NCBI GenBank assembly: GCA_019058365.1
Contig: JAHPZE010000001.1
Coordinates: forward strand, 192,001 to 256,000
Direction of reading: 5' to 3'
DNA length: 64,000 nt
From: Promethearchaeota archaeon
Lineage (GTDB): Archaea; Asgardarchaeota; Lokiarchaeia; Sigyniarchaeales; SOKP01
The position numbers and the translations under genes were made by a program. A model generated the notes under the pieces. It was not told the DNA's origin and ran no database searches. It saw only the letters and a list, made by a program, of their open reading frames with translations. Shown in pieces: positions 1,819-4,776 of this stretch. Every line of letters starts with the position of its first letter. Position 1 is the first letter of the stretch.

Positions 1819-2538
1819 GTGGTTTCAAAAGAACAGAAGAAAATTGAACGAGTTATTAATTTTATGAAAAAGGGTTTAACATCATTAGCAGACGATCTAG
1901 AGGAAACTGTTAAGGGGATAAATGACTTTATTAAATCATTAGCTAAAGCTCAGAAAGATTTGAAAGAAGTATCTGTGGTTGAAGAAGTTCAAACAATAAG
2001 CACTTCCTCTAAAAAAATAGTAGCCACCACAAGTGAGGGTGCTAAAACTGCCGCTGCTAGCACTTTATTTAGTCTTTTAAGTAGTAGTGGAGGTGCTCCC
2101 GTTGCAGCACCTGGTTCAACGCCAGTACCTACTGCAGCCTTGACACCAGGTATTCCTTCAGCTCCTGTCCCTCCTTCTGGTGGGGGACCTCCAAAAGCAC
2201 CTAGTTCTGGCCCCCCTAAAGCTCCTAGTGGAGGTCCTCCTAAACGACCTGGGTTACCACCAGCTCCAAAATTACCCCCTACTAGTGGAGGACCACCTAA
2301 GGCTCCTAGTTCAGCCCCTCAGGCACCTTCAGGAACAGGACCTCCAAAACCTCCAAGTACAGGGCCACCTTCTGCGCCCGCATTCGCAAAAAGACCTGTA
2401 GCACCTCCTGGTGGGATCACCCCTGCCGCTCCCTCTGCTCCAGCTGTTGCACCTAAGCCTGGTGGAGGGTTAGGTTCATTACGTGACGAAATGCTTGATG
2501 AATTGAATCGACTTAAGAAAATTATGAGAGGAGAATAG
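1819..2538 (+). CDS. Coiled-coil + proline-rich protein with a C-terminal WH2-like helix-LKKI motif
   Basis: N-terminal heptad-like helix, long Pro/Gly/Ala/Ser tract with GPPKAP repeats, C-terminus GGGLGSLRDEMLDELNRLKKIMRGE; AGAGG upstream of the GTG start. Confidence 0.75.
   Translation: MVSKEQKKIERVINFMKKGLTSLADDLEETVKGINDFIKSLAKAQKDLKEVSVVEEVQTISTSSKKIVATTSEGAKTAAASTLFSLLSSSGGAPVAAPGSTPVPTAALTPGIPSAPVPPSGGGPPKAPSSGPPKAPSGGPPKRPGLPPAPKLPPTSGGPPKAPSSAPQAPSGTGPPKPPSTGPPSAPAFAKRPVAPPGGITPAAPSAPAVAPKPGGGLGSLRDEMLDELNRLKKIMRGE
2182..2379 (+). repeat. Degenerate coding tandem repeat (G)GPPK(A/R/P)P(S)
   Basis: GPPKAPS occurs three times, plus GPPKRP, GPPKPPS and GPPSAP; locally GC-rich against the AT-rich background. 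Confidence 0.8.
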
Positions 2539-2814
2539 TCTTTTATTAATAAGAGACTATATTTTTTTCTAATAGTAATATTATACTATTTTTATGTTTT
2601 TTAAAAGAGATTTTGTTTTTAATTTAAAAAACGATTATATCCCAATTCTTTGTGGTTTCATAAATCGTAGTGGTTTTGCCTTTTATTCAGCTCTATGCTT
2701 TAATTTTTCAAGATTTTTTTCTTTTTTCTTTCATTTTTATCCATTCTTTGAATTATTCATAATAGAGATTAAATTCAATAAAGTTTTTTTAGGGTTTAGT
2801 AAAAATTATATATA

Positions 2815-3561
2815 ATGTTTGAACATAGCTATTTTATATGTGAGGAAGAAATCCCTATTATTGTACCTAAAAGGATTATGGTTTTTGCTGGCCATCCCGA
2901 TGATGAGTTAATATCTTGTGGGGGTACGCTATTAAAATATCAAAAACTCGGTTCAGAAATCATAATTGTAATAGCTACTTTTGGCTTAGGAGGCTATGCT
3001 AAGGAAAAACATAAAGATAATATAGCTGAAAGAAGGGAAAAAGAATTAGAGTTAGTAAAGAAGGTTTTAAAAAGTGACATTATTGAGTTAGGGTATTCAG
3101 ATTTACAAATTGAAAGAGAAAAAATCTCTCAGATTACTAATCTCATCCGAGATTATAAACCTCAAGTAATTTTGTTACCTCATTACTCAGATTTTCACCG
3201 TGTGCATCGAAATTTATCTTTAATCACACGTGAAGCAATATATCACTGTACTACAGGTAAAGCATACGGCGGACATCTAAGGAGTTGGGTTCCTCATGGT
3301 GCCTATTATTATGAATCACCATCATGTAAATTCGAATACATACAAGGATCTGTATTTGTTATAGTGAATATAGAAGATTACTGGGAAAAGAAAAAAGATA
3401 TTTTTAACCAAATATATACATCTCAAAAAGAAGTTTTAGAGCGTGTTATAGATTGGGCGGAGGATACTGCAATTCTGAGGGGAAATGAAATAAATGCTGC
3501 TTTTGGTGAAGCTTTTATGCCTGAGACTACATATACTCCATTAAAAATTTTATTACAATAA
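2815..3561 (+). CDS. PIG-L/LmbE family N-deacetylase
   Basis: AGHPDDE motif, GGTL, R..E; the second metal motif reads HRVH instead of HxDH. Confidence 0.85.
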   Translation: MFEHSYFICEEEIPIIVPKRIMVFAGHPDDELISCGGTLLKYQKLGSEIIIVIATFGLGGYAKEKHKDNIAERREKELELVKKVLKSDIIELGYSDLQIEREKISQITNLIRDYKPQVILLPHYSDFHRVHRNLSLITREAIYHCTTGKAYGGHLRSWVPHGAYYYESPSCKFEYIQGSVFVIVNIEDYWEKKKDIFNQIYTSQKEVLERVIDWAEDTAILRGNEINAAFGEAFMPETTYTPLKILLQ

Positions 3562-3654
3562 AAGTACGGAGATTTTTTTAATAATTAAAATATTATATTA
3601 GATATACTAGTTTAGGCTTAATATCTTAAAATTAAATTCAGAACCTATTAAGGC

Positions 3655-4776
3655 ATGGGAAATCTAACAATAGTTCTTGATATTGGTCAGTTCAGCACTA
3701 AAATTGGATTTGCAGGAGAGGATACACCATCTCAAGTTTTCCTAACAATGGTTGGAAAACCTAAATATCAAAGTGTAGATGTCAGTTATAAATCTAAGCA
3801 ATCTCATGAAGATGAAATATATGTAGGAGATGAAATTCAATCAATTGGATTATATAAGATTTTTCATCCTATTGAAAAAGGAATTGTTGTGGATTGGACT
3901 CATTTTGAGAATATTATTGATTATATTTTTTACAATTTGAGAGTAGATCCAACTCTTGTTAATGTATTATTTGCTGTACATCCATTATTTCCATATAATG
4001 ACTTAGAGAAAATATTTAAGTTATTTTTAGAAAGATATCAATGTATGGCATTTTATCCAGTATTAGATTCAATGCTAACTCTATACTCCGGTGGTTTCCA
4101 AACAGGATTAATCGTAGAAATAGGTGATAGCAATACACGAATTGTCCCGATTTATGAAGGATATAAGTTAGAGCATGCAGTAAGAATCTTAGATATTGGT
4201 GGAAGAGTATTAACTCACCAAATGGAACAGATTTTAGAATCTATTGGATGGTCAGTCGATTCTTCTATACGCAGAGAGTTAGTAAGAGTTTTAAAGGAAA
4301 AAGCCTGTTTTGTATCTTTAGATTATAAAGAAGATTTGAAGCGAAGTGAACAGTATGAGAAAGAATATTCGCTTCCTGATGGTTCTACAATTTCTCTCAA
4401 TAAAGAAAGATTTATTATTCCAGAATTATTATTTAAGCCTACTTCAGAATTAGAAGAAGATGCATTACATATAGCCATTATGGATGTAATTGAAGCCTGT
4501 GATTTAGACATACGTCCGGAGTTATTAAATAATATTTTTCTTTCGGGTGGTTCATCTATGTTTCCTAATTTAAAATCACGTATCTATCAAGAATTAGAAT
4601 TAGAGTTAGTAAGACGAAAGAAAAAAAATTTAGGAATTAGAATTATCGCTCCAATGGAACGAACATTTTCTGTATGGATTGGAGGATCAATTTTGGCAAT
4701 GATTCCCGAATTTTCTCAAAATTGGATTACACGGTTAAAATATTTTGATGAAGGAATACCACCTAATTTACTTTAA
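3655..4776 (+). CDS. Actin-related protein (divergent Asgard actin family)
   Basis: Phosphate-1 LDIGQFSTKIGFAG, YVGDE, PIEKGIV.DW, phosphate-2 EIGDSNT, KEKACFVSLDY, Y.LPDG, LSGGSSMFP, ER.FSVWIGGSILA; 373 aa, similar in length to actin. Confidence 0.95.
   Translation: MGNLTIVLDIGQFSTKIGFAGEDTPSQVFLTMVGKPKYQSVDVSYKSKQSHEDEIYVGDEIQSIGLYKIFHPIEKGIVVDWTHFENIIDYIFYNLRVDPTLVNVLFAVHPLFPYNDLEKIFKLFLERYQCMAFYPVLDSMLTLYSGGFQTGLIVEIGDSNTRIVPIYEGYKLEHAVRILDIGGRVLTHQMEQILESIGWSVDSSIRRELVRVLKEKACFVSLDYKEDLKRSEQYEKEYSLPDGSTISLNKERFIIPELLFKPTSELEEDALHIAIMDVIEACDLDIRPELLNNIFLSGGSSMFPNLKSRIYQELELELVRRKKKNLGIRIIAPMERTFSVWIGGSILAMIPEFSQNWITRLKYFDEGIPPNLL

Follow-up and report, generated by a model that had tools for sequence, protein, structure and literature searches.

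Tethers of the TonB and FtsZ type share a common plan, in which an anchor or core is followed by a Pro-rich or disordered spacer and a terminal binding element. Asgard archaea possess actin, profilin and gelsolin. No filament-nucleation machinery is known in these organisms, and neither a nucleator nor an elongation factor nor a membrane linker has been reported for their actin (PMC9433394; bioRxiv 10.1101/2025.11.30.690169). In Pyrobaculum, the crenactin regulator arcadin-2 (PDB 5LY3) binds the hydrophobic groove of the archaeal actin through a conserved C-terminal helix placed after an unstructured linker—with the helix alone carrying the binding activity and the linker being non-conserved (PMC5173319). 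The window analyzed here, a stretch of 64,000 nucleotides from a Promethearchaeota archaeon, encodes a 239-amino-acid protein that recalls arcadin-2 in several respects. It is archaeal, its core is followed by an unstructured linker and then, at the very C-terminus, by a small conserved helix, as in the published description (PMC5173319), and its gene has an actin-family gene nearby (Table 1). The two proteins also differ: no sequence similarity was found between them (the arcadin-2 peptide being too short for the PDB sequence set searched), and arcadin-2 binding relies on a tryptophan that is absent from the helix described here. Moreover, arcadin-2 is restricted to the arcade cluster of the Thermoproteales, whereas the present family is pan-Asgard, and its linkage to an actin gene was found only in the collinear block of a single family, f1. 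The protein follows the same physical logic as the TonB- and FtsZ-type tethers, i.e., an anchored, extended spacer presenting a small terminal binding element, with no sequence relation to them; TonB ends as a folded periplasmic domain, whereas the arm of the archaeal protein is cytoplasmic and bears a single end helix.

Table 1. Features of the locus, with positions counted from the first nucleotide of the window
Feature	Position	Strand	Description
orf91, small alpha/beta protein of 91 aa	1279..1554	-	AF2 pLDDT 90, topology a-b-b-a-b-b-b
Candidate adaptor gene (anchor, Pro-rich arm, putative docking helix)	1819..2538	+	GTG start, 239 aa
N-terminal long helix, residues 4-49, heptad pattern	1828..1965	+	AF2 pLDDT >90; many invariant positions
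Short conserved motif KTAAASTLFSLLS, residues 76-88	2044..2082	+	Invariant columns; weak AF2 helix
Disordered Pro/Gly/Ala-rich arm	2083..2460	+	pLDDT about 45-60; GPPKAP repeats
Terminal amphipathic helix LGSLRDEMLDELNRLKKIM, residues 218-236	2470..2526	+	Family-defining motif; AF2 pLDDT about 90
PIG-L family deacetylase	2815..3561	+	Pfam PF02585, 83.5 bits
Divergent actin paralogue	3655..4776	+	Pfam Actin, 300 bits; best PDB matches are conventional actins, about 280-297 bits
orf114, small conserved gene	4890..5234	+	Always after the actin paralogue; no significant Pfam match

The layout that the original prediction had ascribed to this protein—a coiled-coil helix, a Pro-rich arm and a terminal helix—was borne out by the open reading frame and by structure prediction, with the arm measuring ~125 residues. 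AlphaFold2, supplied with 35 homologues, returned a single long N-terminal helix, a weak helix over the short conserved motif, disorder over residues 89-217 and a confident helix at the C-terminus. We propose that the N-terminal helix may act as a head for oligomerization and/or for the binding of orf91. The [LF]xxL[ST]G core of KTAAASTLFSLLS is retained in distant soluble-type relatives, i.e., sequences of families f3, f5, f7, f19 and f27. The arm carries the invariant stretches LPPAPKLPP (2254-2280) and FAKRP (2383-2397), varies in length among homologues through repeat indels and raises the local GC content to 54% from about 27% in the surroundings. Its proline runs are short, as the original prediction had cautioned: tracts of at least five prolines, typical of Ena/VASP profilin-binding sites, were sought in the close homologues, where the longest run is PP in 113 of 120 sequences, and runs of 5-7 are confined to a minority of the more distant proteins that carry the terminal motif. 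Searches of the whole protein against Pfam and NCBIfam yielded noise only, including weak coiled-coil noise.

The terminal helix is extremely constrained: the pattern GGGLxSLRDEMLxELxRLKKIMRG is invariant across all 35 aligned homologues. At 22 loci of the family, up to six synonymous codons per site were found in the helix while the residues remained constant. The helix codons are thus saturated with synonymous changes, and purifying selection is extreme and acts on all faces of the helix. Since, in addition, more than 298 homologues have the same layout, the features of the reading frame cannot be attributed to chance. A profile of the helix matched 300 of 332 Asgard genomes (84 of the 90 high-quality ones), usually once per genome, and the named matches are, without exception, proteins from Asgard MAGs. 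What is kept of the helix in other Asgard lineages is L..EM..E[LI].R[LI]K; LKKI is invariant only among Lokiarchaeales-type members and is represented elsewhere by LKSI, IKEI, LKAL, LKRL, LREI or LKKY/F/L. The ESM Atlas held no match to the helix, the profile found only chance words in the PDB (DC-SIGNR neck, Lem22, glycerol kinase and GCN4), and Pfam returned nothing but OAR and IgD-linker noise for 33 C-termini of the family at E<=10. Full-text literature searches likewise retrieved no paper describing a protein family with this terminal helix. The family, with its putative docking helix, is undescribed and everywhere unannotated, and is present in almost all Asgard archaea.

The same terminal motif is borne by different heads, comprising soluble coiled coils, 1-TM and 8-10-TM proteins, Ras-like GTPases and Zn-ribbon proteins, with the N-terminal coiled coil being swapped for TM anchors in other Asgard lineages. 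In TM-type members, basic residues follow the TM segment, which, by the positive-inside rule, places the arm in the cytoplasm. Some proteins hold the motif in 2-3 tandem copies, and several unrelated carrier families can share one genome (at least three carriers in G123, and a weak second one in G000). The neighborhoods of TM-type carriers contain housekeeping genes only, and the conservation of RpiA, a PIN-ATPase-KH protein and tRNA intron endonuclease next to them is inherited housekeeping synteny.

The steadiest genomic partner of the family is orf91, which adjoins a carrier gene at 15 loci in eight families, in varied orientation, and is confined to families whose sampled carriers are soluble. 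Its presence amounted to 81/88 in f1, 5/5 in f3, 5/5 in f21 and 4/4 in f27, as against 0/7 in f13, 0/11 in f16 and 1/40 in f31. Pfam and NCBIfam gave only noise for orf91, and the ESM Atlas only its own cluster. In fold searches of the PDB, Foldseek found nothing below E 0.5 and VIA-align reached a best Z of 4.3 over 48,161 chains. The order of its secondary-structure elements is reminiscent of the Roadblock fold; no Roadblock chain appeared in the fold-search lists, and we do not claim this fold. Fusions of orf91 to longer proteins were sought and none was found, which is weak evidence. Lineages without orf91 conserve the end helix just as strongly, and orf91 would therefore bind the head of the carrier rather than its end helix.

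As first noted from the sequence, an actin-family gene lies two genes downstream of the candidate adaptor gene on the same strand, with a PIG-L gene in between; Pfam assigns both accordingly. PIG-L is missing from many collinear loci and reduced to a 71-aa remnant in L003, and it is a variable insert between the two genes that lies outside the system. The gene does not encode the organism's main actin: of the six actin-family genes present, it comes fourth, and it shares 40% identity with the top-ranking one. The proposed synteny with actin held in all seven sampled genera of f1, where the two genes are often immediate neighbors on the same strand, and broke down beyond that family. In f1, about eight genes around the candidate adaptor are collinear—orf114 at every locus, with duplications in L015 and L016—and the adjacency is therefore not independent evidence for a link to actin. 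A distance of 44-270 kb separates the carrier gene from the actin orthologue in the sister family f3, and the linkage is lost in f3, f4, f5, f7, f19 and all TM-type loci. No orthologue of the paralogue was detected in other classes, in which the best matches are 36-45% identical. The paralogue thus neighbors the candidate adaptor through gene order inherited inside one family, and the family of the candidate adaptor is far older and more widely distributed than the actin gene beside it.

These observations bear directly on the original prediction, which saw in the protein a possible NPF/VASP-like partner of the neighboring actin-related protein or of Lokiactin. In a true actin assembly factor of the WH2/VASP type, the coiled coil would oligomerize, the Pro-rich arm would recruit profilin-actin, and the helix with LKKI would be a WH2 motif delivering monomers to the neighboring actin paralogue or to Lokiactin. 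The arrangement of modules does resemble that of Ena/VASP and WASP-family proteins, with an oligomerization element, a Pro-rich region and an amphipathic helix running into L-K-K-hydrophobic after a poly-Gly lead-in. The end helix can be likened to GGGLMEEM in the F-actin-binding block of the VASP EVH2 region; LKKI is invariant in Lokiarchaeales-type homologues, and a same-strand actin neighbor is found throughout f1. However, the Pfam WH2 profile (PF02205) matched none of the 33 C-termini at E<=10, and a six-frame search of the genome at the same threshold gave two chance matches elsewhere and none at this locus, bearing in mind that very weak matches can be lost to HMMER filters. The PDB profile search brought up no WH2, thymosin or VASP chain, and neither an EVH1 nor a VASP tetramerization domain was matched by Pfam in the 239-aa protein. 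The helix-linker-extended LKKV arrangement of WH2 was sought in the AlphaFold2 monomer model, which has instead one continuous helix over residues 218-236 that runs through LKKI with no Gly/Pro break, the putative linker residues being invariant. The oligomerization element is N-terminal here, or replaced by TM anchors, and the LKK motif, expected to be conserved, gives way in other lineages to LKS, IKE, LKA, LKR or LRE, while other positions stay fixed. The PP-only proline runs, the greater age and spread of the family relative to the neighboring paralogue, and a report that some Asgard profilins bind polyproline weakly or not at all (PMC9433394) also speak against an assembly factor of this kind. 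The helix is not a recognizable WH2 motif, membership in the WH2/NPF families is not supported, and we regard this reading as very improbable. Families f8, f10 and f24, which lack the terminal motif, retain both actin and Snf7, and the absence of the motif is consequently uninformative.

The end helix could alternatively be a MIM1-type motif recruiting the MIT domain of Vps4 or of another MIT protein, which would turn the family into membrane- or complex-bound ESCRT adaptors. The Vps2/24/46-class ESCRT-III protein of the same genome, encoded next to Vps4, ends ...AELEKELNRLKSDE, and the candidate adaptor ends ...DEMLDELNRLKKIMRGE; both C-termini lie behind a flexible linker and have in common ELNRLK and a hydrophobic-xxx-hydrophobic-xx-L-K spacing, within an amphipathic helical core of the form E-[LM]-x-x-E-[LI]-x-[RK]-L-K. 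Other Asgard ESCRT-III tails read ELExEIx[KR]LKE, and the Asgard Vps2/24/46 tails have previously been interpreted as MIM1 (PMC7240154). Relative to the MIM1 consensus (D/E)xxLxxRLxxL(K/R), the end helix fits in its hydrophobic spacing and in its terminal K, with position 4 being E, not R. Against such a role, an HMM of nine ESCRT-III tails did not rank the candidate adaptor among the 25 best-scoring ORFs of the genome, the reverse match had E=5.7, and ELxRLK is a frequent word in charged helices, from which the similarity is statistically indistinguishable. The carrier helix is also longer and more hydrophobic, with L221, L226, I235 and M236 absent from ESCRT tails, and the protein has no ESCRT-III core domain; covariation between carriers and ESCRT-III tails was inconsistent over 17 genomes, and ESCRT genes do not adjoin carriers. 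(A carrier in G117, ~10 kb from ESCRT-III genes, was considered as a link and rejected, the intervening genes—RNA methyltransferase, TauE, PfkB, ProRS and LarA—being unrelated.) The resemblance thus seems to be at the level of pattern only, and we consider a MIM1 function unlikely. Clearly unlikely, too, is that the helix serves as a short coiled coil for self- or hetero-association, clustering carriers (the GTPase and Zn-ribbon ones included) instead of docking onto a different globular partner. Its 3-4-4-3-4 hydrophobic spacing, its acidic N-terminal and basic C-terminal halves, the tandem copies and the co-occurrence of unrelated carriers in one genome would suit such an element; but 19 residues are short for a stable coiled coil, all polar positions are invariant as well, in better agreement with a specific hetero-interface, and most genomes have a single carrier, already equipped with a long N-terminal coiled coil. 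The amphipathic character of the helix, and its place at the very C-terminus after a flexible linker, also bring to mind the membrane-targeting tails of FtsA and MinD. With invariant acidic residues (D223, E224 and E228), a mean hydrophobicity of -0.20 and a moderate hydrophobic moment of 0.43 per residue, and with TM-anchored versions in no need of a second membrane anchor, membrane binding by the helix is scarcely credible.

On balance, we lean towards the protein being a cytoplasmic adaptor built from an anchor, a flexible arm and a terminal docking helix; the confirmed layout, together with the conservation of the end helix, makes a docking function likely. The housekeeping-only neighborhoods of TM-type carriers weigh against this reading. 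In the adaptor mechanism, the head, which in this lineage is a long helix resembling a coiled coil and always co-occurs with orf91, would provide the anchor, and the disordered Pro/Gly/Ala arm would act as a spacer whose length varies. The C-terminal ~20 residues would slot as a helix into a groove on a cytoplasmic protein that is highly conserved throughout the Asgard archaea, thereby tethering this partner wherever the head sits, either at a membrane or in an orf91-containing complex. By analogy with arcadin-2 on crenactin, the most attractive single partner might be Lokiactin, the main actin, rather than the neighboring paralogue, with the helix bound in its hydrophobic groove, an assignment that we put forward as tentative. 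A more speculative and rather doubtful extension is that the adaptor constitutes the missing Asgard actin-assembly factor or actin-membrane linker. The end helix would grip the actin groove, and the head, either a TM anchor or a coiled coil together with orf91, would hold filaments at membranes as they grow or once they are capped. GTPase signaling would then be coupled to actin through the Ras-like GTPase proteins that contain this helix, and the family, whether it arose independently or shares a very remote origin with them, would be a functional forerunner of the eukaryotic WH2, VASP and formin-tail modules.

The family is near-universal and mostly single-copy, and its 20-residue peptide is under extreme constraint and found also within Ras-like GTPase proteins, which suggests that the docking partner is itself conserved and central to the biology of Asgard cells. 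Should that partner be actin, the family would have a bearing on how the eukaryotic cytoskeleton arose; should it be Vps4 or a GTPase platform, on how membrane trafficking began.

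The 239-residue protein that we term the adaptor combines a coiled-coil head, a proline-rich arm and a terminal helix, hereafter the end helix; any protein with this helix is called a carrier. In an AlphaFold2 model based on 35 homologues, residues 4–49 form a single long helix (pLDDT >90), followed by a weak helix at residues 76–88, a disordered stretch (residues 89–217) and the end helix (residues 218–236), which is confidently predicted and unbroken through LKKI. The Pro/Gly/Ala arm has a GC content of 54%, against ~27% in the surrounding genome region. Since this helix–disorder–helix layout and the order of the downstream PIG-L and actin-family genes (Pfam) were found as described, the original prediction was correct in its description of the ORF; it had also proposed a WH2/VASP-like actin regulator encoded beside an actin-related gene.

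Locations of the genes and loci discussed (first five features in the window; G000, the window's own genome; C, its contigs; L, sampled loci)
Feature	Location	Strand	Remarks
Adaptor gene	1819-2538	+	GTG start, 239 residues
orf91 gene	1279-1554	-	91 aa; upstream of adaptor, divergent
PIG-L deacetylase gene	2815-3561	+	same strand, downstream of adaptor
Actin-family gene	3655-4776	+	same strand, downstream of adaptor; Pfam Actin 300 bits
orf114	4890-5234	+	small ORF
PIG-L remnant	L003:9279-9491		71 residues, 62% identical
Eco57I-type genes of family f3	L019:10753-13635, L020:11590-13677, L021:6215-8731, L022:5512-8235		
ESCRT-III and Vps4 genes	G000 C46:187317-189352		divergent neighbours, outside window
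Weak second carrier	G000 C7:125013-125522		motif FLRDEMINELNNLRDLI; outside window

A word-indexed search returned >298 adaptor homologues of 206–247 residues, all unnamed or "hypothetical" and all from Promethearchaeota MAGs. In the 35-homologue alignment, the N-terminal helix, TVSTSSKK, KTAAASTLFSLLS, LPPAPKLPP, FAKRP and the tail GGGLxSLRDEMLxELxRLKKIMRG are invariant, and the repeats separating these blocks vary through insertions and deletions. Across 22 loci of the family, end-helix sites are each encoded by as many as six synonymous codons while R222, D223, E224, M225, L226, E228, L229, R231, L232, K233, K234, I235, M236, R237 and G238 stay constant in all of them; selection therefore acts on the peptide, across all its faces.

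Whole-genome searches revealed the same terminal motif on different heads in other Asgard lineages, with the consensus [ST]-I-x-x-L-R-x-E-M-L-x-E-L-x-R-L-K-x-[IFL]-M. Built from 33 diverse tails, a 36-column profile matches 300 of the 332 genomes with at least 80% completeness, mostly once per genome, and 84/90 high-quality genomes and 26/30 families; among 1.84 billion representative proteins it matched only 101 clusters, the named ones being hypothetical proteins of Asgard MAGs under the labels Heimdall-, Hod- or Odinarchaeota. Carrier heads comprise a soluble helix, as in the window's adaptor, one TM segment with a coiled coil, 8–10 TM helices with a coiled coil, and a GTPase of the Ras family (Pfam Ras, up to 76 bits) in which the motif precedes a Cys-rich Zn-ribbon-like module; other carriers have two or three tandem motifs preceding such a module, and one is a TM-CCPW-TIR fusion. 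Because basic residues follow the TM segment of TM-type carriers on sequence inspection, the positive-inside rule places their arm in the cytoplasm.

In the window's own genome, a weak second carrier combines the motif with a Zn-ribbon-like module. This Cys-rich module (CPVCG...NH...GIPCCNCY) recurs behind the end-helix motif in numerous Ras-like GTPase proteins of Asgard archaea. Among Asgard proteins, the helix motif was observed in the Ras-family GTPases P0125, P0143, P0167, P0190, P0194, P0202, P0204, P0210 and P0216, placed either at the extreme C-terminus, behind a conserved Cys-containing domain (...SLCIV..GWSN...LLILAKI...), or internally, between PPPP and the Zn-ribbon-like module. 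The GTPase carriers look like an undescribed GTPase-linked motif network. In the 549-aa fusion P0153, an N-terminal TM segment precedes a complete coiled-coil/Pro-arm/helix protein, whose docking helix is here internal, and an unassigned stretch links the latter to a TIR domain (Pfam TIR_2, 66 bits) at the C-terminus.

Unbiased neighbour clustering identified orf91 as the only gene kept beside soluble-type adaptors across families: it adjoins the adaptor gene in 15 loci, whether divergent, convergent or in tandem with it, and these loci come from f1 (the window's family), f3, f5, f6, f7, f19, f21 and f27. A profile search of 189 genomes at least 90% complete detected it in f1 (81/88), f3 (5/5), f6 (2/2), f7 (2/2), f19 (1/1), f21 (5/5), f26 (1/1) and f27 (4/4); it was absent from f9 (0/3), f11 (0/2), f13 (0/7), f16 (0/11) and f18 (0/3), and nearly so from f31 (1/40). 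Families with orf91 have soluble carriers wherever the carrier head was seen, and those without it (f9, f11, f13, f16, f31) have TM-anchored ones, f18 being represented by one carrier's tail only. The predicted fold is confident (pLDDT 90; α-β-β-α-β-β-β), with no convincing structural match in the PDB, and no orf91 fusions were found. Because the end helix is no less conserved in lineages lacking orf91, we infer that orf91 attaches to the soluble head, substituting for a membrane anchor, rather than serving as receptor for the end helix.

The adaptor gene of f3 is flanked in 4/4 loci by a large gene for a restriction-modification methylase of the Eco57I type (Pfam Eco57I, 83 bits). TM-type genes occupy conserved housekeeping surroundings—RpiA, a PIN-ATPase-KH protein and tRNA intron endonuclease—at L069, L071, L072, L074, L076–L080 and L082. 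As tRNA intron endonuclease is also close to soluble-type genes in three Lokiarchaeia families (L025–L027), its position suggests that both types derive from one ancestral locus.

Using tblastn with the window's proteins against 30 loci (each ~±10 kb), we found a conserved order—PRTase, orf91, adaptor, PIG-L where present, actin paralogue, orf114, topoisomerase, histidine kinase—retained in 7/7 sampled genera of f1, with PIG-L frequently absent and the adaptor and actin genes then directly adjacent. Because the whole block is collinear, the adaptor–actin link is inherited gene order only and not independent evidence. Synteny with the actin gene holds in the sampled f1 genera but not elsewhere: in f3, a sister family, the orthologue of the actin gene (49–58% identical) lies 44–270 kb from the adaptor gene, and in other classes no orthologue was detected (best actin match, 36–45% identical). 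The adaptor family is therefore much older and more widespread than the window's actin paralogue, which ranks fourth best of six in its genome, is 40% identical to the best and matches conventional actins in the PDB, not Arps. This divergent paralogue is always followed by orf114 (tandemly duplicated in L015 and L016), with which it may form a unit of its own. The presence of PIG-L varies even between close relatives, and in one locus just a remnant survives, which suggests recent loss.

WH2 identity of the end helix came out negative in all tests run, covering profile, PDB, LKK conservation, helix break and proline runs. The Pfam WH2 model matched 0/33 family tails and, in a six-frame genome search, did not match the adaptor locus (both at E≤10), and WH2, thymosin, VASP and CHMP chains were likewise missing from the hits of a profile search across all PDB sequences; the proposed WH2/VASP likeness is not supported as family membership. 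Nor is LKK a conserved motif, being replaced by LKS, IKE, LKA, LKR or LRE in other lineages while L221, E224, M225, E228, R231, L/I232 and K/R233 are nearly fixed. No helix breaker precedes LKK in the AlphaFold2 model, which is one continuous helix, and PP is the longest proline run in 113/120 close homologues; polyproline binding has been reported as absent or weak in some Asgard profilins (PMC9433394).

An actin groove is nonetheless a tentative candidate for the partner of the end helix, by analogy with arcadin-2, the Pyrobaculum crenactin regulator (PMC5173319). An MIT domain appears unlikely. In the window's own genome, the Vps2/24/46-class ESCRT-III protein encoded beside Vps4 ends in ...IAELEKELNRLKSDE and the adaptor in ...RDEMLDELNRLKKIMRGE, and ELNRLK is common to the ESCRT-III tail (...AELEKELNRLKSDE) and the end helix. 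Such Asgard ESCRT-III tails have been interpreted as MIM1 (PMC7240154); in 17 genomes they have the pattern ELExEIx[KR]LKE. In extreme C-terminal position, flexible linker and hydrophobic spacing, the adaptor fits the MIM1 grammar as well as it fits that of WH2. An HMM from nine ESCRT-III tails did not place the adaptor among that genome's top 25 ORFs, carrier helix and ESCRT-III tail showed no consistent covariation in 17 genomes, and no ESCRT genes adjoin carriers in the loci examined. The MIM1 resemblance is a lead, equal in weight to the WH2 lead. Phyletic patterns are uninformative here, as families without the motif retain both actin and ESCRT-III. Self- or hetero-association among carriers is somewhat less probable still, and membrane binding very improbable; the remaining probability falls to another partner, perhaps one connected with the Ras-like GTPase families that share the helix.

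Together, these results show that the adaptor is pan-Asgard and joins an anchor that differs between lineages, through a spacer, to an invariant helix at its end; this helix would dock into a groove of a conserved cytoplasmic partner.
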